The position numbers were made by a program, and so were the translations under genes. From Anaeromyxobacter sp. (GTDB taxonomy: Bacteria > Myxococcota > Myxococcia > Myxococcales > Anaeromyxobacteraceae), in contig JASGJN010000020.1 in assembly GCA_049840735.1 (NCBI GenBank), forward strand, positions 736,001-800,000: 64,000 nt of DNA, in the 5' to 3' direction. Positions 26,262 to 45,741 of the stretch are shown here, piece after piece. Every line of letters starts with the position of its first letter. Position 1 is the first letter of the stretch. The notes beneath the pieces were generated by a model that had not been told where the DNA came from, ran no database searches, and was given only the letters and a program-made list of their open reading frames with translations.

Positions 26262-29017
26262 GTCGTGTTCTCCCGTTGTAGTCCGACCGCGGCCTCACTC
26301 CATGTCTGCAGCCGGCGAGGTGCCGGGGCGGGCTCGACGCCGCCCCGCTCCGCGCCGGCGGTCCTCCTCCTCACTCCGGAAGCCGATGCCCCGACCGGCC
26401 GGCGCGGTGGCCGCCTGGCGCGAGGGCCGTGGGGCGCCGCAGCGCCGGCTCCGGCGCGGCCAGGCGAGGCGAGGCCCTGGAATCCGTGCCCGGAGATGCG
26501 GAACGTGCCCACCATGCTGGCGAGCTCCTCGGACTGCCCGTTCAGCTCGCTGGCCGCGCTGGAGGACTCCTCGGCGCTGGCCGCGTTCTGGTGGGTGATC
26601 TTGTCCATCTCGCCGATGGCCCGGGTCACCTGCTCGAAGCCCTTGGCCTGCTCGCGGGCGGCCGTGGAGATCTCCGAGACGATGTCGGACACCTTGCCCA
26701 CGCCGGAGAGGATCTCGTCCAGCTTCCCCGCGACCTGCCGGCTGGCCAGCTCGCCCTGTCCCGTCTCGGCCACCGACTGGCGGATCAGCTCCTCCGTCTT
26801 GCCGGCGGCCTCCTTGGCGCGCAGCGCCAGCGAGCGGACCTCCTCGGCCACCACCGCGAAGCCGCGCCCGGCATCTCCGGCGCGGGCCGCCTCCACCGCC
26901 GCGTTCAGCGCCAGCAGGTTGGTCTGGAAGGCGATGTCGCTCACGTCGCGGATGATCTGCGAGGTGCCCTCGGCCGAGCTGCGGATCCTTGCCATGGCGG
27001 CCTGCATCGACTCGACCGCGCTCGCGCCCTCACGGGCGGCGGCGCTGGCCGTCTGCGCCAGCGCGTTGGCTTGATGGGCGCTCTCCGCCGCCTGCCGCAC
27101 GGTCTCGGAGACCGTCTCGACGCTGGCGGTCGTCTCCGACAGGCTCGCCGCCTGCTGGCTGGCGCCGGTGGCCACCGCCGCGGCGGAGGACGCGATCTGG
27201 GCCGAGGCGCTGGAGACGTGGGCGGCGGCGCCGGAGACCTGCGCCAGGGCCTCGTCGAGCACGTCGGCGGTCGCGTTCAGCGCGTCCTTCATCGCGGCGT
27301 GGTCGCCCCGATAGCTGCCCTCCATCCGGGCGCGGAGGTCGCGCTCGGCCAGCTGGCCCAGCACCCGGGTGGCCTCCTGGACCGGCGCGAGCAGGGCACC
27401 CAGCGCCTCGTTCACGCCCTCCATCAGGCGGCGTGACTCGTTCTGGTAGCGGGAGGGATCGGTGCGGGCCGAGAGGTCGCCGGCCGCGAGGCGCTCCAGC
27501 ACCCCGGCCAGCTCGCGCATGGGGGCGACCAGCGCGTCGAGGGTCGCGTTCACGCCCTGCACGATGGTGCCGAAGCCCCCCGGCTGCCGGCTGGCGTCGG
27601 CGCGGACGTCGAGCCGGCCCTCCACCGCCGCGCGGGAGAGGCTGGCCGCGTCCGTGACCAGGGCGCGCAGGTTGGCCCGCACCTGCTCCACGGCGTCGTT
27701 GATGAAGCGCCGCTTGCCGGGGAGCTGCTCCAGGGCGGCGTCGAAGTTGCCGCGCCCGAAGTCGGTGAAGACCGCGAGCGCCTTCCGCTGGACGGCGACG
27801 TGTGCGCTCACCATCGCGTTCAGGCCCCGCGCCATGGCCTGGTAGTCGCCCGCGAAGCGCCCCTCGTCGATGGCGGCGTCGATCTCCCCCTGCTCGTGCT
27901 CCGCGCTCATCCGGTTCATCTCGGCGATGAGCGAGCGGAGGCCGGCGCGGACCTGGTCCACCGTGTCGTTGATCACGCGCTTCTTGCCGGGGAGGGGCTC
28001 CAGGGTCGCGTCGAAGTTCCCTCGCCCGAACTCGGCGAAGATGCCGATGGCCTTCCGGCTCTGGGCGACGTGCGCCTGCACCATCTGGTTCAGCCCCTGG
28101 GCGACGGTCCGGTACTGGCCGGCGAAGCGCGCCTCGTCGATCAGCGCGTCGGTGTCGCCTGCGTCGTGGGCGGCGCTCATCCGGGACATCTCGGTGGTGA
28201 GGCTCCGGAGGCTGTGCACCACCGCGTTGAGGCTGTCGCGGACCCTGTCGAAGTCGGGGCCGCGGCTCTCGGTGAGCGGCTCGGGCAGGTCGCCCTGGGC
28301 CAGTCGCGCCAGCCGCTCGTCGATGGTGGCGAAGATGCGGGCCATGCTCACCGTGAACTGGCGGCCGATCAGGAAGCCCGGGATGGCGAGCACCCCGAAC
28401 CCGCAGGTGAGGAGGATGCCCGACCAGAAGATGACCCGGTCGACCTCGGAGGCACCGGCCGTCATCTCATCGCGGGCGAGGGCCTCGAAGGCGTCCAGCC
28501 GCGCGTTCGCGGCCTCGTGGAGCGGCTTCATGGCCACCACCGCCGCCAGCACCTCGTCGTTCGCGGCGGCCCGCGTCGGGCCGTCGGGCGCGGTCTGGTC
28601 GCGCTCGCGCTCGAGCGCCAGGGCCGAGTCTGCGGCGCGGCGCCACAGGGTCCAGGGAGCCTCGAGCTCGCGCCAGGCCCCGGACGCCTCGGGCAGCTTG
28701 GGCTGGCTGCCGAGGTCCTCGTACGCGGCGTCCATGACCCGGAGGGCCTCCGCCGCCCGCAGGTACAGATCGTTCCGGTAGTCGCTGGGGAGCCGGTCGG
28801 CGACGAGCGCCTGGACGCTCCGCATCACCTCTGCCTGGGTGTGGGACAGCTCGGAGGCCGCGATGTGGTTGGGGATCCGGCCCCGGAGGACCGCATCCGA
28901 GAGCGTGGAGAGGCGGCCGAGCACGAAGAGCCCCGCCACGAGGTCCAGGGAGAGCAGGCCTGTCACGAGCGCCAGCGTGACGATGATCCGGGTGCTGATG
29001 CGGAGCTTGCCGAACAC
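26258..29017 (-). CDS. Methyl-accepting chemotaxis protein with 4HB sensor and multiple HAMP domains
   Basis: Two TMs flanking a periplasmic domain; tandem ~90-aa HAMP repeats; IAFQTNLLALNAAVEAARAGDAGRGFAVVAEEVR signalling hairpin. Confidence 0.93.
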   Translation of the reverse strand: MFGKLRISTRIIVTLALVTGLLSLDLVAGLFVLGRLSTLSDAVLRGRIPNHIAASELSHTQAEVMRSVQALVADRLPSDYRNDLYLRAAEALRVMDAAYEDLGSQPKLPEASGAWRELEAPWTLWRRAADSALALERERDQTAPDGPTRAAANDEVLAAVVAMKPLHEAANARLDAFEALARDEMTAGASEVDRVIFWSGILLTCGFGVLAIPGFLIGRQFTVSMARIFATIDERLARLAQGDLPEPLTESRGPDFDRVRDSLNAVVHSLRSLTTEMSRMSAAHDAGDTDALIDEARFAGQYRTVAQGLNQMVQAHVAQSRKAIGIFAEFGRGNFDATLEPLPGKKRVINDTVDQVRAGLRSLIAEMNRMSAEHEQGEIDAAIDEGRFAGDYQAMARGLNAMVSAHVAVQRKALAVFTDFGRGNFDAALEQLPGKRRFINDAVEQVRANLRALVTDAASLSRAAVEGRLDVRADASRQPGGFGTIVQGVNATLDALVAPMRELAGVLERLAAGDLSARTDPSRYQNESRRLMEGVNEALGALLAPVQEATRVLGQLAERDLRARMEGSYRGDHAAMKDALNATADVLDEALAQVSGAAAHVSSASAQIASSAAAVATGASQQAASLSETTASVETVSETVRQAAESAHQANALAQTASAAAREGASAVESMQAAMARIRSSAEGTSQIIRDVSDIAFQTNLLALNAAVEAARAGDAGRGFAVVAEEVRSLALRAKEAAGKTEELIRQSVAETGQGELASRQVAGKLDEILSGVGKVSDIVSEISTAAREQAKGFEQVTRAIGEMDKITHQNAASAEESSSAASELNGQSEELASMVGTFRISGHGFQGLASPGRAGAGAAAPHGPRARRPPRRPVGASASGVRRRTAGAERGGVEPAPAPRRLQTWSEAAVGLQRENTT

Positions 29018-29094
29018 GGAGCCTCCCCCTCGAGATTTGTGACGACCCGTCCAGGCAGCCGCGCATGACGCCCAGCGACGGCCGCCCAACAGCT

Positions 29095-29110
29095 AGCACG
29101 GTGAGTGCCA
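29095..29110 (-). promoter_or_regulatory. Sigma-54 (-24/-12) promoter for the MCP-fadL unit
   Basis: Minus strand TGGCAC-TCACC-GTGCT, correct GG/GC spacing, about 80 nt upstream of the start. Confidence 0.7.
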
Positions 29111-29281
29111 CCTCCGGCGCCACGCCCTCCTCGGCCGATTCACTCTGTGTGATTCACGGGATCGGCCCCCATGGGCAGGGGACGCGCCCCTCGCCCACGG
29201 TGAAGCGGCCGGCACCCCCTGTCGCCTCGCACCCATGGTGTGGGAACGACGACGAGTGCGTGCGAGTGCGAGGGCACCGTG

Positions 29282-31426
29282 CTACCGGCGGGCGGCCGCG
29301 GGCTTCGCCGGCGGGCCGGCTCCCTCGGGCAGCGCGTAGGCCCCGGCGGTCTGCTGCAAGGACGAGGAGAGATCGTGCGCCTTGGTGGACATCTCGCCCA
29401 GCATCCTGGCGCCGTCGCGGATGGACTCGGACGCCTTCCGCATGTTCGTCAGCGCCTGCGAGACCTGGCTCACCCCGGCCTGGTGCTGCCGCGCCGAACC
29501 CTCCACCTGCCGCATCAGCCCGACGGCCTCATGGACGGTCTGGCCGAGCGCCCCCACCACCTCCCCGAGCCGCGAGACCAGCGCGCTTCCGTTCTCCACC
29601 GTCCGGGCGCCCGCCACGACCGTGTCGTCCACCTGCGCGGTGCGCTCCCGGATCTCGGCCAGGAGCTCCCGGATGGCGGACGCGGCCTTGCGGGAGTCCG
29701 CCGCCAGGCTGCGGAATCTCCCGAGAGACCACGCTGAAGCCCTTGCCCGCCTCCCCGGCGCGCGAGGCCTCGAGGGCGGCGTTGATGGCGAGGGTCGAGG
29801 ACTGGTCGGCCAGGAAGGACACCGTGTCGTTGATGTCCTCGATCTTCCGCACCCGCTCCGCGAGCGCGGTCGAGGCCTGCCCCACCTTCCCGAGCGAGGT
29901 GGAGATGGCGCCCATGGCCTGGATCGCGGACTCGACGGCCGTGCCGCCCTCCTCCACGACCGCGCTCGCCGACTCCCCTTGGCGGATCAGCTCCGACGCG
30001 CGGTCGGCGGCCACGGCCGAGGTCTGCGCCATCTCGGTGGTGGTGTTGGCCGTCTCCGTGACCGCCGCCACCTGCTCGGTGGTGGCGGCCGAGAGCTGCG
30101 CCGAGGCCGACTGCAGGTTCACCACGATGTCGGCGACGTCGCTCGAGACCGCCTGCGTCCGGCCCACCATGGCCCGCAGGTTCCCCGTCATCCGCTGGAT
30201 GGCGTCACCCAGGTCCCCCGCGACGTCGACGTCGCGCCGCAGGTCGCCCGCGGCGATGGTGCGCGCCTGGTCGGCCACCGCCTGCAGCGAGCCATGGAGC
30301 CGCTGGAAGGCCGCCCCGAGGTCGCCCGCGATCCCGCTCGACTGGATGGTCTCCCCGCGCGAGAGCGCGTCCATGCGCCCGGCCAGCTCCAGCATCGCCG
30401 CGCGTGACTCCCGGAAGGCCTGGATGAGCCCGCTCTCCCCCTCCAGCTCACGGCCGAGGTCGCCCTTGGCCATGGCGCGGAGCTGGTCGAAGGCGTGCTG
30501 CAGCTCGAACCCGATGCCGGCCGTGACGCTCGCGAGATCCCCATCTCGTCGGTCGCCGTCCAGTGCGGCAGCCGGGGAGCGCCCGCCGCGATGGCGCGCA
30601 GCGCGGCCTCGACCTCGGCGGCGGCGCGGGCCTCCCGCCGGGCGAGCATGGCGCCGGTGATCCCGAAGGCGACGAGCAGGATCAGCAGGAGGCCGAGCAC
30701 GGGCAGGCCGGCCTCGACCTCGAGCCCCCCCAGCTGCGCGCGGACCACGTCCGCGGCGTCGCCGAACCGATCCCCGGCCAGCAGCGCCAGCAGCCGGTCG
30801 CTGGCCGAGCGCCACTTCACCACCACGGTGATCCCGGCAAACGCCACCAGCGTGAGGAGGGCGATGCAGAAGGCGTACGGGAGGTACCAGCGCTGGCGCA
30901 CCCAGAACGGCCCGGACCCGGTCGGCCGCACGCCAGGATTCCGGAGCGCGATCTCCAGCACCGCCGGGCGGAGGTGCTCCTCGCAGCGGATGGCCAGGAT
31001 GGGCCCCAGGAACAGGGCCGCGAAGAGCCCGGCGATGGCCCCCAGCCAGAGCCGCTCGACGGGCCCGCCGAAGATCATGGCCGCGGCCACCGTGTACGCG
31101 GCGCCGCCCGCCGTCCAGCCGAGCGTATAGGGCAGCACCTCCATCCGTCGCGGCAGCTCCAGCAGCCGGCGGAGGCGCTCCGGATCGCCTGGCGCGTCGA
31201 AGGCGGAGCGCGTCAGCACGGTCGCGGCCACGTACTCGAAGGCCATGGCCAGGGAGACCATGGGGACCAGCACCAGGGAGGTCGAGAGGGCGGTCGTGGA
31301 CCACGAGAAGCCCAGCGAGATGGCGATCAGGTAGCCCACCACGATGGAGCTCGGGAACGAGGTGAGGCACACGCTGCCGAAGATGCGGTTGCGGATCTCG
31401 AGGGGATCGACTGCGGGTCTGGTCAT
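29282..31426 (-). CDS. Methyl-accepting chemotaxis protein with multi-TM N-terminus (frameshifts ~30535 and ~29720)
   Basis: About 6 TMs, HAMPs, LADQSSTLAINAALEASRAGEAGKGFSVV hairpin; spread over three ORF-track frames. Confidence 0.85.
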
Positions 31427-31555
31427 GAGGCCACCTGTCGGCTCGGTCGCTGGGTGGATGAGCATGTCGCGCGCTCGCGAGATTTCAGCCTACCCCACCG
31501 CGGGGGTGGGTCTCCACCGCCGGTTACAGGCTTCGGAGGTCCGGATCGGATGGCG

Positions 31556-31805: not shown

Positions 31806-34800
31806 ATGGACAACGCGGAGCACCTGATCGCGATCATCGGCCTGGGAGCGCTGCTCCCGGACGCGGCCACCCCGGACATCTTCTGGAGCAACACGCTCTC
31901 AGGGCGCTCGGCGGTGCGCCGCCTGCGCGGCGGTGCGTGGGAGTGGGAGCAGCTGGGGCTCGCGCCCCGCGCCGCCGTGGTGGAGGGCTTCACGCCCGAC
32001 TGGCGCGCCTTCCGGATCCCGCCGGCCGACGCCGAGATCATGAACCCTGCCCAGCTGCACGTGCTCGAGGCGGGGCGCCAGGCGCTCTCGGCCGTCCGCG
32101 CGCTGCCGCGCGAGCGGACCGGCCTCTGGCTGGGCGCCACCGGGCTGGGCTGGCAGCCCGACACGGGGCTCCGGGTCCGGCTCGACGATCTCCTCGAGAC
32201 GTACCGGGCCGCGTGCGCCGACGCCGCCCTGGAGCCCTCGACCGCCGCGGCCGCGCTGGCCGACGCGCGCGCCGCGCTCGAGGCCCGGGCCCTGCCCGCC
32301 AGCGAGGAGCCGGTCGTGAACTCCGCCGCGAGCATCGCGGCCGGCCGGCTGGCCACGCTGTTCGACCTGCGCGGCCCGCACTGCGCCGTGGACGCCGGCT
32401 TCGCGTCGGGGCTGGCGGCGCTCGAGCTGGCTTGCCGGGCGCTGCGCGACCGGACCGTGGACTGCGCCATCGCAGGCGGCGCGGCGGAGCTCCTCTCCCC
32501 GGCCGAGCTGACCGCGCTGGAGCGCATGGGGGTCCTGGCCCGCGAGGCGCCGCGCCCCTTCGACGCGGCGGCTGACGGGACGGCGCCGGGCGAGGGCGCG
32601 GTCCTCTTCGCGCTCAAGCGGCTGGAGGACGCCCAGCGCGACGGCGACGACGTGCTGGCGGTGGTGCTGGGCGTCGGGAGCGGCGCGGAGGGCGCGCGCG
32701 CCCCGATGCTCGCGCCGTCCGCAGCGGGCCAGGCGATGGCGGCGCGCCGGGCGCTGGAGGAGGCGGGCGTCGGCGCGGACACCATCGGGTACCTCGAGTG
32801 CCATGGCACCGGCACGCCCCTGGGCGACGCGACCGAGCTGGCCGCGCTGGCCGAAGGGTACGCGGGCGCAGGGCCGGTCCCCATCCCCATCGGCTCCGCC
32901 AAGTCGGCGGTCGGGCACCTCCGGGGCGCAGCCGGCGCGGTGGGGCTCCTGCGCGCCGTGCTGGCGCTGTCCCGCGGGACGGTCCCCCCCAGGCCGGCTG
33001 GGCGGCGCCCTGCCCCGAGCTGGCCCGCGCCGGCGCGCCGTTCTCGGTCCCGACCACGCCGCGCCCGCTCTCCCCGCGGCGGCGCGGCCCGGGCCCGGGC
33101 CGGCGTGGCCGCGGCCTCGCTGGGCGGCATCTGCTACCACGCCATCCTCGAGGCGCCGGGGGCACGCGCGGCCGCACCGCGCGCAATCCCCTCGCCCGTC
33201 TCCAGCGGCCGCGAGCCCATCGCCGTGCTCGGCCTGGGGAGCGTCCTCCCCGGCGCGGGCGACGTGCCCGGCCTGTGGCGCGCCCTGCTGGAGGGGAGAT
33301 TGGGAATCCGCGAGGTCCCGCCCCAGCGGTGGTCGGCGGAGCGCTTCTGCGACCCTGATCCGCAGCGGCTGGAGCGGAGCTACACGCGGCTGGGCGCGTT
33401 CGCGGACACGCCCGACCTGGATCCCCGCTGGCGGGTCCCCCCGGCCTCGCAGGCGGCCGTGGACCCGACCCAGCTCCTGGCCCTGCGCGCGGCCGAGGAG
33501 GCGGTGGCCGACGCACACCTGGAGGACGGCGCGTGGGACCGGGCCCGCACCGGTGTCTTCCTCGGCTTCATGGCTTGCCAGGGGCGCAAGCTGCTGGCGG
33601 AGGTCCGCTTCCACGCGCTGCGCACGGGGGCGTACCTGCGCGAGGCGCTGGTGGCCCGCGGTGCCCCCGAGGAGCAGGTCCGCACGCTGCTCGCTCGCGC
33701 CCAGGAGCGGACCGAGGCGGCGCTGCCCCCCCTCGACGAGGACGCGCTGCCGGGCTGGCTGGGGAGCGTGGCCGCGGCCCGCATCGCCCGCCGCTTCGAC
33801 CTGCTCGGCCCGCGGCTGGCCATCGAGTCCGCCTGCGCCTCCACCCTGGCCGCGCTCCAGGCGGCGGTCCAGGCGCTGCGCGCCGGCGCCTGCGACACCG
33901 CGCTGGTCGGCGGAGCGTGGGCGGACATGCAGCCCGAGTTCTACGTGGGGAGCTGCCGGTTCAACGCGCTCTCGGCCAAGGGCAGCACGCCCTTCGACGC
34001 CCGCGCCAGCGGCTTCGTGCCGGGCGAGGGGGCGGGGTTCGTGGTGCTGCGCCGCCTCGCCGACGCCGAGCGCGACGGGCAGCGCGTCCAGGCGGTGGTG
34101 CGCGGGGTGGGGGCCTCGAGCGACGGCGCCGGCAAGTCCATCTTCGCCCCCTCGGCCGAGGGCGAGGCCACGGCCATGCGCCGCGCGCTGGAGGACGCCG
34201 GGGTGGCGCCGGGGCTGGTGGAGTACGTCGAGTGCCATGGGACGGGCACCGCGGCCGGCGACGCCGCGGAGGTGGACGCCTGCACGCGCGCCTACGGCCG
34301 CGGGCGCGAGCGGCCGCTGCGGGTGGGATCGGTGAAGTCGAACTTCGGACACCTGCTGGGCGCGGCCGGCGCGCCGGCGCTGGTGAAGGCGATCCTGGCC
34401 CTCCGCGAAGGGCTCCTCCCGCCGTCGCTGAACGTCGAGCAGCTCAACCCGGCCATCGACTTCGCCGCCGGCCCGGTCGAGGTGGTGACGCGGCCCACGC
34501 CTTGGGAGGCCGCGCCGGGCGAGCCCCGGCGCGCCGGGGTCTCCGGCTTCGGGCTGGGCGGCACGAACGTGCACGCGGTGCTGGAGCAGTACCGCTCCCC
34601 CGCCGAGCGCCGCAGCGACGCCGAGCGCTCGCGCCCGCGGCTGGAGGCCGTCGCCCTGCCCGCCCCGCGCCGCCGGATCCTGCCGGTCGCGGTGGCGACC
34701 GGGGCCGACCTGGCCGCCTGCGCGCAGGAGCTCGTGGCGCTGGCGGCTGCCGCCCGGCGCGCTGCGCCGGGCGAGTACCTGGCCCTGCTGGCCCGGGCCC

Positions 34801-37800
34801 AGCGCAGCGCCGGGGCCGGCCCGTGCCGGATGGCCGTGGTGGCGCGCGACGCCGCCACGCTCGGCGCGCGGCTCGAGCTGATGCAGAACGCGCTCGTCGC
34901 CGGCCTCGACCCGGGGCTGCTCGGCTCGCAAGGCATCTTCGTGGCGCGGGGGGACCGCCAGGGCGTGGCGGTGACGTTCCCGGGCCAGGGGCCGCAGTAT
35001 CCCAACATGCTCCGCGACGCGCTGGCGGAGTTCCCCGAGCTGGGCGAGACCCTCGACGCGGCGGACGGCGCCTACCAGGCGCTGTGCGGCAGGACGCTCC
35101 GGCAGGCCTTCTTCACCGATCGGCCTGCGGAGTATGCCCAGCGGGACGAGGACATCCACTGCGCGGTCTTCGCGGTGAACGTCGCCCTCTACCGGCTGCT
35201 CCAGGGGTACGGGCTCTGCCCGGATGCGCTCATGGGGCAGAGCGCAGGCGAGCTCGCCGCCCTGGTCGCGGCCGGGGCCGTCTCGTTCGAGGACGGGCTG
35301 GGGGTGGTCCGCGAGCGCACCGCCTCGGTCCTGGCCATCCAGACCGACGACCCGGGCAAGATGATCGCGCTCTCCTGCGGCGCCGAGGCGGCGCTGGCGC
35401 TGGCTGCAGGCATCCCTGGCTACGTGGCGCTGGCCGCCGACAACGGGCCGGACGCCTGCATCCTGTCCGCCGACGGGCGCGCGACGCCCGTGCTGGTCGA
35501 GCGCGCCGCCCGCGCCGGGATCGAGGCCACGGTCCTGGGGGTCTCGCACGGCTATCACTCGCAGCTCATCGCCGCGGCTCGGCCGCGCTACCAGGAGCAC
35601 CTGGCGCGGGTGGCCTTCCAGGCGCCGCGGCTCGAGGTGTTCTCGACCGTCACCGGGGGCTCGCTGGGCACCTTCGATCCCGGCGGCATGGTGGAGCACC
35701 TGGGCAGCCAGTTCGTGGAGCCGGTCCGGCTCCGCGCGGCGGTCGAGGCGCTGTACGCCCGCGGCGTGCGCGTCTTCGTGGAGTGCGGGCCCAAGTGGCC
35801 CCTCACCACCTTCGTCGGCCAGATCCTGGGCGACCGCCCGCACGCCGCCATCGCGACCATCCATCCCAAGGTGGGTGAGGTCGAGCAGATCCATCGCGCA
35901 CTCGCCTGCCTGTTCGTGCACGGCGCCGCTTCGCTCTTCCCCGTGGAGGACCTCGTGATGCACGCCTCACCCGCCGCTGCCGGCCACGCCTCTCCGTCGC
36001 CGTCGGAGCCCGCTCGCGCCGGCGATCTCACCGCCCTGCTCCGGGGGATCCGCGACCTCATCGACGGCTACCTCCGCGCCACCGGCGCCGAGGCCTCCCT
36101 CGCACCGACGCCGGGCGCTGCAAAGGCGAACGGCGCCACGGCCAAGACCAACGGCGTGGCGACCCATGGCGCCCACCGCGTGCCGGCGCCGGCCCCGGTG
36201 CCGGTGCAGGCGTCGGTGTCGGCGCCCGCCTCGGTGCCGGCGGCGGTCCCCTCGCCGCGCCAGGCGATCGAGCCGGCCTCGCCGCCGAGCGCTCCGGCCG
36301 AGCCCGCGCCCACGCTCGAGCTCGTGCAGGGTGCGCTGATCGACGAGTTCGCCCGCCGGACCAAGTACGTCCCATCCATGTTCAACCCCGACCTGGACCT
36401 GGAGGCCGAGCTCGGCATCGACACCGTGAAGCAGGTCGCGGTGCTCGCGGCGGTCCGCCAGCGCTTCGGCGTCGCGCCGGACCCGACCTTCAAGGTGCGG
36501 GACGCGAACACCATCGCGAAGGCCGCGGCCTGGCTGGTGGCGCGCGCCACCGGAGCGAGGGCCGGCGCCACGACGGCACCGGTCGCCTCGGCCGCACCGC
36601 CCGCACCAATCCCGCCTCCTGCCCCGGCCAAGGCCCCCGCGACCACCGCTGGGAGCACGCCGCTCCCGGCGGCCGCCCCCCCGCCGGCCGGCCTGCCGCG
36701 ACGCCCGAGGCCACGCGCGACGGCTCGGCGACGGCAATCCCTCCGGGAGCCTCGCTGGCCGAGGTCTGCGAGAAGGTGCGCCGGATGCTGCTGGACGAGT
36801 ACGTCCGCAAGACGCGCTACCCCGAGGCGATGCTCGATCCGGACCGTGACCTCGAGGCGGAGCTGGGCATCGACACCGTCCGGCAGGTCGCGGTGCTGGG
36901 CGCGGTCCGGGAGCGGCTCGGCCTGGCGCCGGATCCCCGCTTCAAGCTGCGCGACGCGAACACCATCGCCAAGGCGGCCGAGGTGCTGGCCTGGCGCCTG
37001 GTGGGCGAGGCGCCGCCTCCCTCCGGCCCGGGGCCCGGCGGCGGGCAGCCGCGACCGGGCTCGGCGGAGCCGGCCTCCGCTCACGGGACCTCCTCGGCGA
37101 GCGGCGCAACCTCGGCCATCATGGCGCCGCTGGCGAGCGCGGCGTTCGCGCCCAGCGCCGCCGCTGCGCAGCGCCCGGCCGCAGCCCTGGACCGCGCCGG
37201 GTGCGGGCCCGAGGCGGCGCCTCCTCCCGTGCCCACCTCCGCCGCGTCGCTCTCCACCGCGGCTCGCCTGCTCGAGGCCATCCTGGCCACCGCCGGCGGC
37301 GACGTGCGTGAGCTGACGGGGATCGCCGTCGGTGGCGAGGCCGGGTCCGGCAGCCCCGGTGAGCCTCGGGTCATGTCCGAGCCCCCCCACGGCGGCGCCG
37401 TCCGGCAGCATGCGGCCATGGGCGGCGCGGCCGCCGAGGCCACGGTCCGCACCGGCCCCGCGACGGCCCGGCTCGACGCGCCGCCGGAGGTCCTGGCCGC
37501 CGTCGCGCCGGTCCGGCGCGAGCGGGCGGCCGGCGGAGATGAGCTGCGCGCGGCGCTGGCGCCGGTCCTGGGAGAGGCGCGCGGCCTCCTCACCTGGGCC
37601 CGCTCCGAAGGGTTCATGTCGACCGCGGGAGGGGCGCTCCTCCCGGGCGGATCGCCGGCCGCCCGCCTGTCTGCCCTCCTGGTGGCCGCGGCCGAGCTGG
37701 CGTCCTTCGCCTGGCTGGGGCTCACCGGCGCGCCGCACGCGCTCGTCGCCATCGAGCGCGTCACCGTCCAGGCCCTGCCCCACCCCGGCGCCGAGCTCGG

Positions 37801-38020
37801 CCTCAAGGTGAAGATGATCCCGCCCGAGAGCGGGCTGTGGCGCGCCGACGTCCACGTGGTCTGCGAGGGGGAGCTGGTCGCGGAGATCCGCGGGCTGACC
37901 GGGGCCCCGGTCCGGGCCGCGCCCGCGACGCCGGGCCTCGTCGGCGACGCCGCCGAGCGCGCCTGGCGCCGCTTCTGCCGGCGGATGCGGGCGGAGCACG
38001 CGGCGGAGGAGGTGGCGTGA
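31806..38020 (+). CDS. Type I PKS/FAS subunit 1: KS(inactive)-KS-AT-ACP-ACP-hotdog-like (frameshift ~36700; compensating pair ~32990/33075)
   Basis: KS1 DAGFAS/ECHGTGT/KSAVGH; KS2 ESACAS/ECHGTGT/KSNFGH; AT FPGQG, GQSAG, HGYHS; two DLEAELGIDTV ACPs, the second in frame 36776..38020. Confidence 0.88.
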
Positions 38021-41000
38021 GCGCGGTGGGACCGATCGCCATCGTCGGGCTCGGCTGCCGGTTCGCCGGCGGGGCCGGGCCTTCGGCCTTCTTCGACCGC
38101 TGCGCCAGCGGGGCAGCGCCGGCGCGGGCCGTCCCGCCGACGCGGTTCGATCCCGAGGCGCTCGCCCACGAGCTCCCCCCCGGCGCCCGCCTGCCGATGC
38201 GCGCCGCGCTGGTGGACGAGGTCCCGCTCGACTGGAAGGCGCTCCGCATCCCGCCCATCCAGGTGGAGGGGCTCCACCTCGGCGAGCGGCTCGCCCTGCA
38301 GACCATCGTGGAGGCGATCCAGGACGCCGGGCTCCCGCCCGGACCGCGCGAGCCCCTGGACCGCGCCCAGGTCTGGCTGGCCGCGACCACCTTCGGCTCC
38401 GACGAGCGGATCGATCCCATGCGGCGGATCCGCCGCTACCGCCTGGCCGCGCCCATCCGCGAGGCGCTCGAGCGCCACGCGCCGGGCGAGGTCGAGCCGG
38501 CGCTGGCGCTCCTCGACCAGCTGGTGGACCTCGCCTCGCCCTCCATCGAGCCCGACGCGCTCTTCACCTCGGCGAGCATCGTGGCCGGCCGCGCCACGCA
38601 CCTGTCCAACTTCCGGGGCGGGCACCTGGCCATCGACGCGGGCACCGTCTCCTCGCTGGCCGCCGTGGCCGAGGCCTCGGCTGCGCTGGCGCGGGAGGAG
38701 TGCGACCTGGCCATCGTGTGCGGGGTCGCCCCCCTCGTGACGGCCTCGGCGCTGCTCGCCTTCGCCCACCGGGGCGAGCTCTGCCCGGGGGCGCCGGCAC
38801 CGTACGCTCGCGCGCCGGCCGGCACGCTGCTGGGCGAGGGGGCCTTCGCCGTGGCCCTGACCCGGCCCGCAGAGGCGGTGGGGCGGCGGGTCTACGCGGT
38901 CATCGAAGGGATCGGCGCCGCGGCCGAGCCGCGGGACGCCGGCGACGCAGGGCTGGAGCGCTGCGTGGCCCGGGCCGCGCGCGAGGCCCTGCTGGCCTCG
39001 GGGGTCTCGCCCGACGCGATCCACGCGGTCTCGAGCCGGGCGGCCGGGCTGCCCAGCGACGCCGCGGAGGCGGCGGGGCTGGCCGACGCCTACCGCGGGC
39101 GGAGCGCGCCCCTGGCGGTGGCGTCCTGCGTGCCGGCCACCGGTCACCTCCGGTGTGCAGGCGGCCTGGCAGCGCTGGTGCAGGCGGCGGTGGCCCTCCA
39201 GCGCGGCGCCTGGCCCGCGCCGCCGTCGCGGTCGGGGGACCTGGTGGGCGGGGTGGTGATGGCGGGCGCGTCGCCGGTCCGGCCCGAGCAGCGGGTGGCG
39301 GTGAGCGACGCCGGCCCCGAGCCGGTGGCGTACCACGCCGTGCTGGCGAGGCCGGGAGCCCCGGCGGCGGCGGCCCGGCCGGCGGCCCGGAGAGCCCGGC
39401 AGGCTGAGGGGTTCGCCGTGGTGGGCGTGGGGCTGGTCGCAGCCGACGCCAACGATCCCCGCAGCTACTGGAAGAACGTCCTCGAGGGCTCGGATCCGGT
39501 CAGGGACCTCCCGGCCTCGCGCTTCGACGTCGAGGCGCTGGTCGGCCGGAACGCCGAGCTGGCCCACGCCTTCCGCACGCGCCTGGCGGCGACCGTCTCG
39601 CCGCCGCCGCTCGACCTGGCCCGCTACGGGATCGCCCCGCAGGAGCTCCCGACCCTGGACCCGGCCATCCCCATCGCGCTGCTCGCCGCGGAGCAGGCGC
39701 TCCGGGGCGCCCGCTGGGAGCGGAGCGCCGGCCGGCGTGGACAGGCGGTGTTCGGCCAGCTGTCGCTTCGCGCGCGCGACGCCGCGGTGGAGATGCGGAT
39801 CGCCTTCGCCTCCACGCTGGCCCTGGCCTCCGAGGCGCTGCGCGAGGCCGGGCTCTCGCCGGAGCGCATCCGGGAGGTCCTCGCCACGGCGCGCGCCCTC
39901 TACGACGCCCGCGGAGCCGCCCACTGGACCGAGGCCCTCTCCGCCAGCACCGGGTACTCGCTCGCCGCGCGCGTGGCCGGCGCCTTCGGCCTGGGCGGCG
40001 TTCCGCTCACCGTGGACGCGGCCTGCGCCTCGTCGCTGGCGGCCGTGCGCCTGGCTTGCGACGCGCTGGCGCGAGGCGAGGTGGACCTGGCCCTGGCCGG
40101 CGGCGTGGCCTACAACCTCCTGCCCGAGTACTACGTCGGGCTCGGGCTCATGGGCGCCCTCTCGCCGCGGGGCGCCCTGCCCTTCCACGAGAACGCCGAC
40201 GGCTTCGTGCCGGCGGAGGGCGCGGCCGCGGTCGCGCTGCGGCGCCTGGCCGACGCCCGCGCCGACGGCGACGAGATCCTGGCCGTGGTCCGCGGGCATG
40301 GGATCTCCAGCGACGGCCGGGCGCTCTCCATCTACTCGCCGTCCTCCGAGGGCCAGCAGCTGGCGCTGCGCAGGGCGCTGGCCGACGCCGGGGTGGAGCC
40401 CGGGACGGTGGACCTCCTCGAGGCGCACGGCCCGGCCACGCAGCTCGGCGACCGGACCGAGATTGCCAGCTGCGCGGCGGTGTACGGTGACGCGCCCCGG
40501 CCGTCTCCCCTGGTCCTGTCGGCCTCGAAGTCGCAGGTCGGCCACACCACCAGCGCCGCCGGCATGATCGCCCTGGTCCGCGCCGTGCTCGCGCTGGGGG
40601 AGCGGGTCCTGCCCGGCTCCAACCGCCGGGGCGAGCTCGACCCCGAGCTGCACCTGGAGCGGATCCCGGCCGTGCTGCCGACCACGCCCCGCCCCTGGCT
40701 CGCTCCGCGAGGCCACCCCCGCCGCGCGGCCGTGAGCGCGTTCGGGTTGGCAGGCGTGAACCATCACCTGATCCTGGAGGAGGCGCCGGGCGCCGCGGAG
40801 GGCGAGGTGCGCGCCCCGGTGACGGTGCCGCCGGCCAGCGGCCTCGCTGCGGACCGGTTCGCCATCGAGCTCGCGCCGGTGGCGCTCCCGGAGCGGCCGC
40901 CGCTCCACGCGCTGGCCGGGCGCCGGGCCGTGGTGGTGGGCGCGCCCGGCGGCCGCGCCGAGGCGCTGGCGCAAGCGCTCGTCGCCAGTGGTCTCCAGGC

Positions 41001-43296
41001 GCGGCGCCTCGATCCGCCCGCGTCGGGCGAGCTCGAGCTCGAGGGCGTGAGCCTGGTCGTGGACGCGACCGCGCTCGAGTGGGACCCCGGGCTCCTGCTC
41101 CTCCCTGCCGCCGCGCTCGCAGCGCAGGCCCGCGCGCACGCGCAGCGGGCCGTCGCGCTGGCGCGCTCCATCCACGGGTGGATGGAGGACGCCTCCGCGG
41201 AGCGGCCGGCCATGTACGCGGCGGTCACCGCCATGGGCGGCGACCTCGGGCTCTCCGGCGGCGGCGCGGGCAACGTGCTGGGCGCGTTCCAGCATGGGCT
41301 GGCGCTGGCGCTGAAGCAGGAGCTCCCGGCCGTCCTGGTCAAGGCGCTGGACGCGCCGCCGGGACTGGCCGCGCCGGAGCTCGCCCGCGAGCTGCTGCGG
41401 GAGCTGGAGGACGGCAACGAGCGGGTCCAGGTCGGCTGGGCCGGCCGCCGGTTCGTGGTGAATCTCCGGCGCGCCGCGCACCCCGACGAAGCCGCCCCCT
41501 TGCGCGAGCTCCGGCCTGGGGACGTCTTCGTCTTCTCCGGGGGCGGCCGGGGCGTGGTGTTCGAGTGTGCGCGGGCCGTGGCGCAGCTGGGCGCGGTCGC
41601 CGTGGTGACCGGCCGCACCGCCGTGCCCGATCCGGGCGCCCCGCACGTCGGCCTCGACGACGAGGCGTTCGCCGAGTTCCGCCGCCGCGAGATTGTCCGG
41701 CGCCGGGGCGAGCCGGGGCTGACCCCGGCGCGGTTCGAGCGGGAGATGGCGCCGCTGGTCCGCGAGCGGGAGCTCCACCGCAACCTGGCGCGCGCCCGCG
41801 CCGAGGGGCTGGCCATCGAGTACGAGCCCTGCGACGTGGTCGATCCCGAGTCCGTGCGGGCGCTGGTGGCGAGGGTGCGCGCGCGGCATGGGGCCATCCA
41901 CTACCTGGGGCACGGCGCCATGATCGAGCGCTCCACCGGCCTGCCGTCGAAGACCGACCAGGACGTGGCGCGCACCGTGGACTCCAAGGTCGCCGGCCTG
42001 CTCAACCTGCTCGACGCGACGGCCGCCGATCCCATCCGCGCCGTGATCGCCTTCGGCTCCGGGGTGGCTCGCTTCGGGAACCGCGGGCAGACCGACTACG
42101 CCGGCGCGAACGCGCTCATGGCGGCGCTGCTGCCGGCGAGGCTGGCGCGCGCCGGGCACCCCGCCGCGTGCGTCACCGTGAACTGGCCGGCCTGGCGCGA
42201 GGTGGGCTGGGCAGCCTCGAACCGCGACATCGCCGCCGGCCTGGACGCCATGGGGGTGACGTCGATCCTGCCCGAGGAGGGGCGGTACTGGTTCCTGTCC
42301 GAGCTGCTCCACGGGACGGAGCCGGAGGTGCTGGTGGCCGGTGAGCGGATGCTCCACGCCTGGCCGTTCTTCGGCGCGTCCGCCGACGGGCGGCGGCCGA
42401 TTGGCCCCACCGACGACCGCGCCGCGCTGCTGGTGCCCGGCTCGTTCCCGCTGCTGGACGAGGTGATCGAGCGCGGCCCGGGTCGGCTGCTGGCGGCCCG
42501 GAGGCTCGATCCGGACCAGGAGCCCTTCCTGGCGCAGCACCTGCTGGATGGCCGCCCGGTGCTGCCGGGGGCGTTCGCCCTGGAGATGCTGGCGGAGGCA
42601 GCCTCGCTGCTCCGGCCCGGAGCGGACGTGGTCGAGGCCGTCGAGTTCCGCGTCGACGCGCCGGTGGTGAACGTCCGCGGCGCGGTGGACGTGCAGGTCG
42701 AGGCCGTGGAGGTCGGGCCAGGCCTGGTCGAGGCGCGGCTGCTGAAGCGGCTCGCCATCGAGGGCGCGCCACCCCGGATCCACGCCTCCGCCCGGCTCCG
42801 GCTCGGTGAGCGGCCCGCCAGGCCTGGCGCCTCGCCCATCCCCGAGGCCGAGGGGGTGATCCGGGCCCGGTCGTTCTATCGGACCTCGCGGGATCCGGTG
42901 GCCCTCGGCCCGCTCTTCTGCCGGGCCCAGTGGATCGAGCTCCGGGGCACGGAGGCCGTCGGCTTCATCGAGTCGCCGGACCCGGGCGGCATCGTCGGTG
43001 GCTCGACCTGCCCGGCCTTCCGGATCGATCCCCTGCTCCTCGACTCCGCGTTCCAGCTCGCCGGGAGCGTGGAGGGGTTCGGCGAGGGGTTCGTGTGCGT
43101 GCCGGTGGCGGTCCAGGCGGTGCGGGTCGGGGACGTCCCCAGGCGCGGCGAGCGCGCCCGCGGGCGCGCGGTGAGGGCCCGCGCCGAGGCGCCACGCGTG
43201 TTCTACGACGTGGTCGTGGTGGGCGAGGACGGCAGGTTGCTGCTCGACGTGGTGGGCCTCGAGCTGCGCCGCGTGGCCCAGGCGGAGGCGGCATGA
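38017..43296 (+). CDS. Type I PKS/FAS subunit 2: KS(inactive)-KS-KR-DH
   Basis: KS1 DAGTVSS (degenerate); KS2 DAACASS/EAHG/KSQVGH; KR SGGGRGV and YAGAN; DH HLLDGRPVLPG and DSAFQ; GTGA overlap with subunit 1. Confidence 0.9.
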   Translation: MSAVGPIAIVGLGCRFAGGAGPSAFFDRCASGAAPARAVPPTRFDPEALAHELPPGARLPMRAALVDEVPLDWKALRIPPIQVEGLHLGERLALQTIVEAIQDAGLPPGPREPLDRAQVWLAATTFGSDERIDPMRRIRRYRLAAPIREALERHAPGEVEPALALLDQLVDLASPSIEPDALFTSASIVAGRATHLSNFRGGHLAIDAGTVSSLAAVAEASAALAREECDLAIVCGVAPLVTASALLAFAHRGELCPGAPAPYARAPAGTLLGEGAFAVALTRPAEAVGRRVYAVIEGIGAAAEPRDAGDAGLERCVARAAREALLASGVSPDAIHAVSSRAAGLPSDAAEAAGLADAYRGRSAPLAVASCVPATGHLRCAGGLAALVQAAVALQRGAWPAPPSRSGDLVGGVVMAGASPVRPEQRVAVSDAGPEPVAYHAVLARPGAPAAAARPAARRARQAEGFAVVGVGLVAADANDPRSYWKNVLEGSDPVRDLPASRFDVEALVGRNAELAHAFRTRLAATVSPPPLDLARYGIAPQELPTLDPAIPIALLAAEQALRGARWERSAGRRGQAVFGQLSLRARDAAVEMRIAFASTLALASEALREAGLSPERIREVLATARALYDARGAAHWTEALSASTGYSLAARVAGAFGLGGVPLTVDAACASSLAAVRLACDALARGEVDLALAGGVAYNLLPEYYVGLGLMGALSPRGALPFHENADGFVPAEGAAAVALRRLADARADGDEILAVVRGHGISSDGRALSIYSPSSEGQQLALRRALADAGVEPGTVDLLEAHGPATQLGDRTEIASCAAVYGDAPRPSPLVLSASKSQVGHTTSAAGMIALVRAVLALGERVLPGSNRRGELDPELHLERIPAVLPTTPRPWLAPRGHPRRAAVSAFGLAGVNHHLILEEAPGAAEGEVRAPVTVPPASGLAADRFAIELAPVALPERPPLHALAGRRAVVVGAPGGRAEALAQALVASGLQARRLDPPASGELELEGVSLVVDATALEWDPGLLLLPAAALAAQARAHAQRAVALARSIHGWMEDASAERPAMYAAVTAMGGDLGLSGGGAGNVLGAFQHGLALALKQELPAVLVKALDAPPGLAAPELARELLRELEDGNERVQVGWAGRRFVVNLRRAAHPDEAAPLRELRPGDVFVFSGGGRGVVFECARAVAQLGAVAVVTGRTAVPDPGAPHVGLDDEAFAEFRRREIVRRRGEPGLTPARFEREMAPLVRERELHRNLARARAEGLAIEYEPCDVVDPESVRALVARVRARHGAIHYLGHGAMIERSTGLPSKTDQDVARTVDSKVAGLLNLLDATAADPIRAVIAFGSGVARFGNRGQTDYAGANALMAALLPARLARAGHPAACVTVNWPAWREVGWAASNRDIAAGLDAMGVTSILPEEGRYWFLSELLHGTEPEVLVAGERMLHAWPFFGASADGRRPIGPTDDRAALLVPGSFPLLDEVIERGPGRLLAARRLDPDQEPFLAQHLLDGRPVLPGAFALEMLAEAASLLRPGADVVEAVEFRVDAPVVNVRGAVDVQVEAVEVGPGLVEARLLKRLAIEGAPPRIHASARLRLGERPARPGASPIPEAEGVIRARSFYRTSRDPVALGPLFCRAQWIELRGTEAVGFIESPDPGGIVGGSTCPAFRIDPLLLDSAFQLAGSVEGFGEGFVCVPVAVQAVRVGDVPRRGERARGRAVRARAEAPRVFYDVVVVGEDGRLLLDVVGLELRRVAQAEAA

Positions 43297-43982
43297 CCCT
43301 CGTGGCGCTCGCGCTCAGCCGGGTGCGAGTCCACGATGCTGCGCTGACGGACCTCGACGAGCGTGAACGGGCCGCGCTCCTGCCGGGCGCCGTGCCCAAG
43401 CGGCGGGCGGAGTACGCTGCCGGGCGCCGGGCCGCACGCGCGGCGCTGGCGAGGTTCCTGGGCCAGGCCGCGGAGGGGACCGCGGTGGTGCCCGCAGGAG
43501 CGGGGGGCGGCAAGCCGCTCGTCATCGACGCCAGCGGGGCGCCCCTGGCCGACGCCCACCTGTCCATCACCCACGCCGCCGGCCTGGCAGCGGCCGCCGT
43601 CGCACCGCGCCCGATCGGCCTCGACCTGGTGACGCTCGAGCCGCTCGAAGAGGCTTTCCGTGAGGAGGCCTTCGAGCCCGGGGAGATCGCGCGCTGGGAG
43701 GCGTGGATTGGCGCGGCCCAGGGATCCGTGCAGGGTCCCTGCGTGGCGTTCGCGGCCAAGGAGGCCGTCCTGAAGTGGCTCGGGACCGGGCTCGAGCTGC
43801 CCCTCCGCGCCGTCCGCGTCGAGCCCGCCGGGCCGGGGACCCCGACGCTGCTGGGCGATGCGGTGGCAGCGCTGTCGATGCCCGTGCGCGTCGAGAGCCC
43901 CCGGGGCACTGCGCTGCTCGAGGGCTGGATCGCGGCGTCCCCTCGGCGGGTGATGGTCGGGGTGTGCGGCTCCACGCCATGA
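43293..43982 (+). CDS. 4'-phosphopantetheinyl transferase (Sfp/EntD-like)
   Basis: KRRAEYAAGR, LSITH, IGLD, FAAKEAVLK; ATGA overlap with the PKS. Confidence 0.9.
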   Translation: MTLVALALSRVRVHDAALTDLDERERAALLPGAVPKRRAEYAAGRRAARAALARFLGQAAEGTAVVPAGAGGGKPLVIDASGAPLADAHLSITHAAGLAAAAVAPRPIGLDLVTLEPLEEAFREEAFEPGEIARWEAWIGAAQGSVQGPCVAFAAKEAVLKWLGTGLELPLRAVRVEPAGPGTPTLLGDAVAALSMPVRVESPRGTALLEGWIAASPRRVMVGVCGSTP

Positions 43983-44099: not shown

Positions 44100-44345
44100 A
44101 TGGGCCTGATCTCCTGGATCGTGGTGGGGCTGATTGCGGGCTGGTTGACCGGAAAGATCATGGGCGGCCCGAGCAAGGGCGTCCTGATGGACATCATCAT
44201 CGGCCTGGTCGGCGCAGTCGCCGGCGGGTTCCTGGTGGGCCTGTTCGGACTGCGACCGGAAGGCGGCATCATCTACACGATCATCGTTGCGGTGATCGGA
44301 GCCGTGGTCCTGACCTGGATCTACCGCAAGGTGACGGCTCGATAG
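44100..44345 (+). CDS. GlsB/YeaQ/YmgE (transglycosylase-associated) membrane protein
   Basis: MGLISWIVVGLIAGWL..IIIGLVGAVAGG..IIVAVIGAVVL. Confidence 0.92.
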   Translation: MGLISWIVVGLIAGWLTGKIMGGPSKGVLMDIIIGLVGAVAGGFLVGLFGLRPEGGIIYTIIVAVIGAVVLTWIYRKVTAR

Positions 44346-44377
44346 AGGTCGCTCGCGGCCCGGGGGCCGCCGCCGCA

Positions 44378-44411
44378 GGAACCCCGATCACCGGCTGGCG
44401 ATCGGGGCTCC
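44378..44411. terminator. Hairpin between convergent genes (possible bidirectional terminator)
   Basis: GGAACCCCGATCACC-GGCT-GGCGATCGGGGCTCC. Confidence 0.6.
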
Positions 44412-44451
44412 CGACGCGGCGCCGGCGAACCGGATGCCGCGGACCGGCTCG

Positions 44452-45281
44452 CTACTGCTGGACCAGCTCCACCCGCCGGTTCCTTGCCCGACCCTCCTCC
44501 GTGGCGTTGCTCGCGACCGGCGCGATGGGCCCGGCGCCACGACCGACCATGCGTCCCGCGTCGATGCCCTGCTTGGCCACCAGCGCCTGCACCACCGCCT
44601 CGGCGCGCGCCTGGGAGAGCTTGAGGTTCAGGTCGAGCGAGGCGGTGTTGTCGGTGTGCCCCACCACGTAGACCCGGAGCGCGGGGTCGGCCTTGAGCAG
44701 CTTGGCGATTCTCGGCGAGCGCGACCTCCGACTCGGGCTTCAGGTCGGCCTTCCCCGTGTCGAAGAAGATGCCCGGCACCTCCACGTGGCCGCTCTTGCT
44801 CAGCCCGGCCTTGAAGACCTCGGCGCTGGCGGCGACCTCCTGCACCATGGCCTGCCGCTCGATGATGGTCAGCATGTACCCCTTGCCCCAGGCCGTGTCG
44901 ACCTGGGCCCAGATCTCCTGGCCGTCCTTCGCGACCTTGAGCCAGGTGTAACGATTGTCCTCGAACAGGACCGTCCCGCCGATCCTGGTGATGGCCTGCT
45001 GGTGGTTGCGGATGATCGCGAGCGGGCTGGGGTACGCCTCTCCGGTCCGGATCTCGGTAGCGCAGCTCGATCCGCTTCCCTTCCACGGTGGCGTCGGTCC
45101 CCTTGCCGGTCTTGAACTTCTGGCTGTCGAAGGGGAGCACCCTGCAGGTCGCGATTCGCATGGCGTTCATGCGGGTGAAGAGCGGGTGGTCGGTGCACCC
45201 GGCCGCGTCCGCGTCCGGAGCGGCGGCGTGGACCCGAACGGCGGCGGCGACCAGCACGGCGACGACGACCAGGCGTGTCAT
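44452..45281 (-). CDS. OmpA-family peptidoglycan-binding protein (frameshifts ~45055 and ~44710)
   Basis: Signal peptide, DHPLFTR N-terminal domain, IFFDTGKADLKPES, VVGHTDN..LSQARA..NRRVELV OmpA_C domain. Confidence 0.85.
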
Positions 45282-45741
45282 GACTCTCCTCCAGCTGAAG
45301 TGGGTCGGTCTCGAAGCCAACACGTGCTCCCTGGCCACGGGGACTGGGAGCGGAGGACATCCAGGGGCGCTCCAGGCAGCGCTGCTCTACGGAGCACCAG
45401 GGCAGGATGTCACCAACCGTCAAGCGAGCGGCCGTTGGCGCGCGGGCACGAGGCCGGCGCAGCTGAGCGCCTCGCGGGATGGTGACCACCGGCAGGGCGC
45501 CGCGAGAGCGCGTCGAGTCCGCTGGGGTGGGGCGCGCGGTGCCGCTTCCACCAGGGGACCGTCGAGAGCCTCCCGCCCGATGACGGTCCCTTCGACGGAG
45601 CAAGCGAGGGTGGCTTCGAGGCCCCAGTCCGTTGCTTCCAGGCCCTCCTGATCCAGGGTTGGCTCGCCCGCCGAAGCGCCCGTGCCGTCAGCTCGGGTAG
45701 GTGCAGACCTCCCCCTGGAGGGCCAATCGTCCATCTTGTCG

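Follow-up and report, generated by a model that had tools for sequence, protein, structure and literature searches.

Threonine at the phosphopantetheine site of acyl carrier domains in an Anaeromyxobacter gene cluster and in a large family of PfaA-like synthases

Closest described systems and the window cluster

The serine to which phosphopantetheine is attached in acyl carrier proteins (ACPs) is treated as invariant, and serine-to-threonine replacement is used as a dead control; ACPs with threonine would therefore be read as inactive. Two such ACPs are found in a polyketide synthase (PKS) cluster of Anaeromyxobacter sp. (Myxococcota), in a stretch of 64,000 nucleotides (contig JASGJN010000020.1 of assembly GCA_049840735.1, forward strand, positions 736,001 to 800,000), hereafter the window, in which positions are counted from the first letter. 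The cluster consists of gene A, gene B and a gene for a phosphopantetheinyl transferase (PPTase), and each start overlaps the preceding stop.

PfaA- and HglE-type synthases (with PfaE/HetI) resemble the synthases considered here in their tandem ACPs of the LEADLGID type, in their ketosynthase-acyltransferase-ACPn-ketoreductase-dehydratase (KS-AT-ACPn-KR-DH) logic and in a linked group II PPTase, but their ACPs read D-S-I-K-R where those of the Thr family read D-T-V-K-Q. The window cluster has both the tandem ACPs and the linked PPTase of the PfaA type. TIGR02813 is a top NCBIfam match of the cluster, with 649.5 and 407.9 bits, below its cut-off of 1010.1, and no PfaD-type enoyl reductase (ER) or FabA-type DH partner gene is found in the three genes of the cluster.

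Type R secondary lipid synthases are described as a single gene of KS-MAT-CLF-ACP(3-6)-KR organisation (CLF, chain-length factor) with a downstream PPTase and, in the accessible parts of the source, a product that is uncharacterised (Shulse and Allen 2011, PMC3098273); the word "threonine" occurs 0 times in the main text of that paper. By this description, most of the Thr family matches Type R, having one KS-AT-KS'-ACPn-KR-DH gene and a downstream PPTase (Acidobacteria, Chloroflexi, Elusimicrobia), and the same likeness is seen in a second synthase of the window genome, on contig C26; none of the five named Type R members came up by name among the sequences retrieved. The window cluster differs from the published outline in its two-gene form, with pairs of a Cys-less KS (KS0) and a KS, and in having two ACPs.

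Threonine-type carrier domains

Threonine at the phosphopantetheine site of both PKS carrier domains had been reported in a sequence-only reading of the window, and is confirmed here: both codons are ACC, the sites read DLDLEAELGIDTVKQV in ACP1 and DRDLEAELGIDTVRQV in ACP2, and each contains LGID-T-V. The features concerned are as follows.

36336..36536, + strand: ACP1, Thr type (Pfam PP-binding, AlphaFold model, Foldseek)
36423..36425, + strand: Thr codon ACC, phosphopantetheine site of ACP1 (sequence reading)
36806..36982, + strand: ACP2, Thr type (Pfam PP-binding)
36875..36877, + strand: Thr codon ACC, phosphopantetheine site of ACP2 (sequence reading)

Pfam recognises both domains as PP-binding. 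In the AlphaFold model (59-row alignment, pLDDT 97) ACP1 forms the four-helix bundle of the ACP fold, and Thr40 stands at the start of helix II in place of the Ser of the Gx(D/H)S motif. In a Foldseek search with this model ACPs come out on top, with TM of about 0.8 and none under an E-value of 0.001; sequence searches of the PDB with the ACP and the PPTase found no close solved relative. The window genome has 15 PP-binding matches, of which two, both Thr, are in the window and the remaining 13 are all Ser, in agreement with the earlier statement that no Ser-type ACP is visible in the cluster.

Two protein searches and a cluster look-up, made with a Thr query, yielded 210 proteins with 786 related ACP domains. 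Of these domains 586 have Thr and 189 Ser at the site, five have a gap and six have other residues; the last six are visibly degenerate repeats, and intact repeats have only Thr or Ser. Proteins are mostly uniform (166 Thr-only, 36 Ser-only and 8 other, three of which mix Thr and Ser). Thr is accompanied by V-K-Q (D-T-V-K-Q) and Ser by I-K-R (D-S-I-K-R). A pattern scan of species genomes found at least 123 stretches, 80 of them titled, and among the matches listed with titles are Acidobacteriota, Anaerolineae, Actinomycetota, Desulfobacteraceae, Myxococcota, Elusimicrobia, Gemmatimonadetes, Rhodothermales and Poseidoniales archaea. A metagenome scan added nine loci, three of them with a window-type ACP (L217 left out). 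Thus, the Thr carrier first noticed as a feature of the cluster is real, but belongs to a very large family and is not specific to this cluster.

All four Thr codons (ACN) are used at the site, also at loci chosen without the motif pattern. Because 586 domains share the motif and every Thr codon occurs at the site, it is neither chance nor a read error, the latter as had been argued from the two diverged copies. Sequencing error at the two window codons is further excluded by the Thr of the closest homologues; every one of the closest homologues of the window ACPs is of the Thr type, and the catalytic domains of Thr-only synthases are intact (see below), contrary to what would be seen if close homologues had Ser and the window copy were degenerate. 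No column has Ser in more than 20% of Thr-type domains, and 353 of 1312 distinct Thr-type domains have no Ser at all; judged from the alignments, there is no conserved substitute Ser.

The synthase on C26 is a second Thr synthase of the window genome with its own PPTase. Its locus (G000:C26:134613-145445) encodes KS-AT-ACP2-KR, from which a DH part is split off; a gene resembling acyl-CoA dehydrogenase lies upstream, and the PPTase downstream. A paralogue of the C26 PPTase (49% identity) is found on contig C7 (G000:C7:257211-257441); it has Arg-Gln for the catalytic Lys-Glu and is probably inactive.

Catalytic integrity and linked PPTases

The synthases that carry only Thr ACPs appear fully equipped for catalysis. 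Cys-His-His is present in at least one KS of all 83 Thr-only proteins with a full KS, and the AT site Ser (93/93), the KR Tyr (88/88) and the DH His (36/38) are retained. Linkage to a PPTase was counted over 78 loci (80 minus two duplicates). The PPTase lies within 58 of these, and 12 more loci end less than 1 kb from the ACPs; in the remaining eight genomes a PPTase with Thr-linked enzymes as its nearest relatives is found just outside the locus (2) or elsewhere (6). In 26 proteins the PPTase is fused to the synthase, and 23 of these are Thr-only. Co-occurrence of the Thr motif with this PPTase, proposed as a check from the sequence alone, is therefore seen almost everywhere, as linkage or fusion. 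Tighter linkage in Thr than in Ser systems is not claimed, as the Ser-type control loci are few (20 fetched) and were first searched with a Thr-biased profile. P0049 (MBD3192858.1, from a Heimdallarchaeota assembly) combines an NMO-type reductase with KS, AT, two Thr ACPs, KR, DH and PPTase in one chain. L224:11265-18560 is a Ser-type KS-AT-ACP-DH chain containing two PPTase-like domains.

All of the 92 Thr-linked PPTases compared retain the catalytic Asp and Lys-Glu. The window PPTase is of group II by its size (about 230 aa) and its 4PPT_N and ACPS domains. In its Mg triad (Asp-Xxx-Glu) the first and third residues, which are the essential ones, are the invariant D111 and E157, and the second is Val, as also in the PPTases of G006, G014 and L218; the second Glu is reported as non-essential in the available text of PMC4103896. 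A model of the ACP1-PPTase-CoA-Mg complex scores 0.92, against 0.01 for the best control, and places ACP residues 39-41 and PPTase E157 at the interface (at least 95% contact agreement between runs, partner pLDDT at least 92); the mark used for such scores is reached by 116 of 157 solved pairs and 2 of 215 mismatched pairs. As PPTase-carrier complexes have already been solved, the model shows likeness only, and says nothing on Thr chemistry.

Archaeal synthases

On sequence grounds, the strongest case for modification of Thr is found in archaea. G426 (locus L076) is a Candidatus Poseidoniaceae archaeon, and 41 genomes were taken from its family. In 41/41 the PP-binding matches fall in the synthase (up to about 3000 aa), the sole exception being an extra modular protein in G439. 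The site could be read in all 41, and is Thr in 40 and Ser in one (G438). The operon comprises a fabI-like reductase, the Thr-ACP megasynthase and the PPTase, near a thermosome gene (L288:6305-16699, L076:3935-14320). There is exactly one PPTase match per genome, in 34 cases on the synthase contig within about 5 kb, and no Ser carrier was detected in 39 of the 41; in these 39 the PPTase thus has no detected substrate except the Thr ACPs. A second model found no discrete ACP in any of the five family genomes in which it was applied, and in those five strong KS matches are seen only in the synthase.

Across the archaeal order, the Thr pattern is present in 53 of 91 genomes. Twenty of the 38 pattern-negative genomes were examined: 17 show no carrier, G474 reads D-T-V-R-Q, and in G477 and G480 the same synthase has Ser. 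In archaeal Ser versions the codon is TCN. These data bear on the possible route to fatty acyl chains in Marine Group II archaea, the only carrier domains detected there being mostly Thr; the terms polyketide and acyl carrier are absent from the main texts, as far as accessible, of two Poseidoniales surveys (PMC6461757, PMC6336850).

A role as main synthase is conceivable. No discrete full-length FabF-like gene is seen in 10 of 15 hosts tested, and some of these may therefore use the Thr synthase as their main synthase, a role that Shulse and Allen proposed for Type S in the accessible part of their paper (PMC3098273). The bacterial hosts G416, G418, G420, G422 and G427 are among those in which such a gene was not found, and in G416 and G418 the Thr synthase has the only strong KS matches. 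Acyl-CoA dehydrogenase genes (as in L030:3311-5032 and L065:7153-9383) stand beside single-gene Thr synthases at 44 of 84 loci, with electron-transfer flavoprotein (ETF) subunits at 14-15, and carboxyltransferases also occur. The dehydrogenase may replace the missing ER, and such dehydrogenase/ETF neighbours, or FabI in archaea, would allow saturated chains.

Switching between threonine and serine

In the KS tree (171 rows), 37 Ser synthases form one group, and the all-Ser proteins P0154 and P0108 fall among Thr synthases. The fused PPTases of these two are likewise closest to Thr-linked ones. In a 39-row KS subset the starred branches force three Thr/Ser changes, and a single all-Ser clade is rejected (approximately unbiased test, p 1e-38, for a group named after the first tree was seen). 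When the site and its +1 and +3 columns are left out of the comparison, 154 of 155 Thr ACPs still have another Thr ACP as nearest neighbour. Entire arrays have switched between Thr and Ser at least twice in bacteria and also in archaeal orthologues, never to a residue without a hydroxyl.

Proposed carrier chemistry and alternatives

These observations point to phosphopantetheinylation of Thr by a dedicated PPTase clade, to which a probability of roughly 0.85 is given. The hydroxyl of the Thr at the start of helix II would be the actual attachment site, and the co-encoded group II PPTase, with Mg, would transfer 4'-phosphopantetheine from CoA onto it. The holo-ACPs would then serve an iterative PfaA-like synthase in which the AT loads, the KS extends, the KR reduces and the DH dehydrates. 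The PPTase lineage would accept both Thr and Ser, and the V-K-Q signature may be an adaptation of helix II, either to the additional methyl or to the enzyme. The proposal from the window sequence of a Thr-phosphopantetheinylated carrier system with a specialised PPTase is thus supported as to the carriers by the family, the intact catalysis and the linkage, which make modification probable, and as to the enzyme by a dedicated, co-inherited lineage; there is no support for a PPTase exclusive to Thr. Where these synthases occur in Ser versions, their PPTases belong to the same lineage, and no residue separates Thr- from Ser-linked enzymes. The sole, weak candidate is PPTase residue G166, present in 100% of 94 Thr-linked enzymes and kept in two of four from Ser versions.

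Several points weigh against modification of Thr. As a Thr query was used to collect the protein sets, the Thr:Ser ratio is not a census. A comparison of 92 Thr-linked, 13 Ser-linked and 18 unlinked enzymes revealed no Thr-specific PPTase signature, nor did one with the four PPTases of Ser versions. How complete the archaeal assemblies are is not disclosed, and a discrete ACP of divergent sequence might escape detection in them; G481 has a PPTase and no detected carrier, and G477 a Ser synthase and no detected PPTase. Bacterial hosts, the window genome included, also carry Ser ACPs and other PPTases. In the window, ACP1 and ACP2 are in different reading frames, a point overlooked in the sequence-only reading. 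Finally, the window subfamily joins the other Thr synthases weakly (support 0.33 in the 171-row tree, 13% in the 39-row subset), and a single origin of Thr is accordingly unsupported.

The Thr ACPs might instead stay apo, as spacers or docking units, with a Ser ACP such as AcpP carrying the chain in trans and being primed by the linked PPTase. Two published results lean this way and count against modified Thr, as far as the accessible texts go: E. coli ACP S36T is not post-translationally modifiable and gives no complementation or growth (PMC3340395), and inactive ACP repeats can raise the yield of polyunsaturated fatty acids (PUFA), a precedent for a structural role (PMC5067506). The window genome does have a discrete Ser ACP, and G418 has one detected PPTase together with a discrete ACP-like open reading frame (ORF). 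S36T is the same residue at the same site, but as an engineered, non-functional control it bears on host enzymes acting on an ACP that is not adapted, whereas in the Thr family the residue is conserved and travels with its own PPTase. The PUFA-yield effect leaves unexplained the genomes without a Ser carrier, and 39 of 41 archaeal genomes in which none was detected retain a PPTase. A spacer would moreover tolerate Ala, which is at odds with intact repeats that have only Thr or Ser, and the PPTase is fused to 23 Thr-only proteins. Apo spacers are thus very unlikely. It is similarly improbable that the cofactor sits on another residue, or that the acyl chain is bound to Thr itself as an O-ester, or that Thr bears another cofactor. 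Two further Thr (in TGY and xTL motifs) are highly conserved, as the first of these would have it, but they are equally conserved in Ser-type ACPs, and the lack of a frequent Ser column speaks against it too; with direct acylation, the linked and intact PPTase would have no explanation, and the same operon also occurs with Ser orthologues. Editing or recoding of the Thr codon to Ser is hardly credible. One base separates ACN from TCN, the codons of the archaeal Ser versions, but every one of the four ACN codons is in use, in many phyla and in both domains of life concerned. We know of no Thr-to-Ser recoding in these groups.

If Thr is modified, more than a thousand proteins would have to be re-examined (1265 cluster representatives of Ser and Thr types, E up to 1e-10), and a Thr-priming PPTase would give a new tool for labelling, which might be orthogonal to AcpS and Sfp. 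A wider interpretation, for which the chance comes close to even but stays below it, is that phosphopantetheinyl-Thr is a second carrier chemistry with its own PPTase lineage, in a megasynthase family whose members include the sole chain-elongating fatty-acid synthase detectable in Marine Group II archaea (Poseidoniaceae) and in some Chloroflexota and Elusimicrobiota; the window cluster would be a secondary-metabolite offshoot of this family. The gene clusters themselves are of known kinds, Type R and probably that of dawenol (see below). A literature search found no Thr attachment of phosphopantetheine in print, with subscription papers mostly out of its reach; an earlier remark on the Thr may stand in the dawenol paper, in the supplement of PMC12211065 or in the PMC3098273 alignments.

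The Stigmatella cluster and dawenol

The dawenol synthase of Stigmatella aurantiaca (MIBiG BGC0000044) was reportedly described by Osswald et al. in 2014. In the accessible parts of later papers, dawenol is given as a PUFA-like polyketide (PMC8767328) of BGC0000044 (PMC12211065) that is conserved in Stigmatella (PMC12224551), and the 21-kb dawenol PKS as having been expressed in M. xanthus (PMC8719831, PMC11619377).

The Stigmatella proteins ADO69379.1 and AIS92916.1 have five Thr ACPs and a KR. An identical copy of ADO69379.1 is found in G202, in a cluster of about 20 kb with the order AT, KS0-KS-AT, ACP5-KR, AAT-DH, KS-KS, KS-KS-DH, PPTase, DH. No Ser ACP was found in this cluster; in its genome, the best match to PfaA falls here, and ACPs of this type are found nowhere else; clusters of the Stigmatella type have their own PPTase in five of five related genomes. 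The array of P0002 (L230:6883-10893) alternates D-T-V-K-Q with D-T-(I/V)-T-Q and starts with a degenerate ACP without Ser or Thr.

Like the window cluster, the ADO69379.1 cluster has KS0-KS pairs, an AT with GQSAG, a Thr ACP array and an in-cluster PPTase, the KS0 and GQSAG signatures in G202 being as in the window, and the ACPs of the two group together. Identity in KS0, KS and AT is about 40%. The Stigmatella cluster has, in addition, a discrete AT, a gene for AAT-DH, a third KS-KS pair and one more DH; the window cluster is without the discrete AT, the AAT-DH gene and the three KS-KS pairs. In size (about 20 against 21 kb), PfaA likeness and genus-wide presence, the ADO69379.1 cluster agrees with the dawenol PKS, and it is probably the dawenol synthase; coordinates or accessions tying it to BGC0000044 were not found in the sources searched. 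If so, a Thr-only synthase already has a known product. The all-Thr Stigmatella cluster is also the likely closest characterised relative of the window cluster. No ER or TE (thioesterase) domain is found among the window cluster genes, and the product suggested on this ground, tentatively and at rather less than an even chance, is a polyene-like long chain related to dawenol.

Gene layout of the window cluster

The remaining features of the cluster are as follows.

31806..38020, + strand: gene A, KS0-KS-AT-ACP-ACP-(half-DH-like C-terminus), broken by indels here, a single gene in relatives (Pfam, frame mapping against P0015)
31824..33005, + strand: KS0 of gene A, Phe for the catalytic Cys (VDAGFASGL), His-His retained (active-site reading)
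32984..33072, + strand: compensating pair of frame switches at C runs, likely assembly errors (frame mapping)
33201..34505, + strand: KS of gene A, Cys-His-His triad (IESACASTL) (Pfam, active-site reading)
34977..35912, + strand: AT of gene A, GQSAG active site with Ser, HGYH motif (Pfam, active-site reading)
36676..36745, + strand: frameshift stretch between ACP1 and ACP2, starting at a run of seven C (frame mapping)
38017..43296, + strand: gene B, KS0 (IDAGTVSSL)-KS (VDAACASSL)-KR-DH, GTG start overlapping the gene A stop (Pfam, active-site reading)
43293..43982, + strand: group II (Sfp-like) PPTase, 229 aa, D111 and K156-E157 retained, Val for the second Glu (Pfam, alignment)

The translational coupling claimed for the PPTase is seen in its ATG, which overlaps the gene B stop (ATGA, 43293-43296). 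The Cys-less KS0 domains are probably chain-length-factor-like partners. The three-gene form recurs in G006, G014 and L218, and in G006 and G014 gene A is a single ORF of 2036-2038 aa. Mapped onto an intact relative, the window gene A switches frame at about 32984 and 33072, the compensating pair, and at about 36680, each time at a C run.

A separate question is whether the window copy alone is a pseudogene of a family that otherwise works as proposed. The three frame switches would suit a pseudogene, as would the deviation of the window PPTase from the Thr-linked consensus at several positions. However, all three breaks are at C homopolymers and two of them compensate each other, the catalytic residues of the cluster are intact, and the Val at the second Glu is common to the G006, G014 and L218 orthologues, at the position described as non-essential in the text available (PMC4103896). 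A pseudogene is thus unlikely. Since gene A is a single ORF in G006 and G014, and a split is also seen in an unrelated permease gene of the window, assembly error is probably the cause of the breaks.

The split permease is a GguB-like (sugar) permease at 48597-49789, divided into two frames. A chemoreceptor gene (29529-31465) and an OmpA-like gene (44321-45338) of the window also appear split, which suggests residual indel errors in the assembly. Genes for a FadL/OmpP1-type outer-membrane transporter and for chemoreceptors flank the cluster both in the window (25023-31465, minus strand) and in G006 (L013:289-3706), on different sides.

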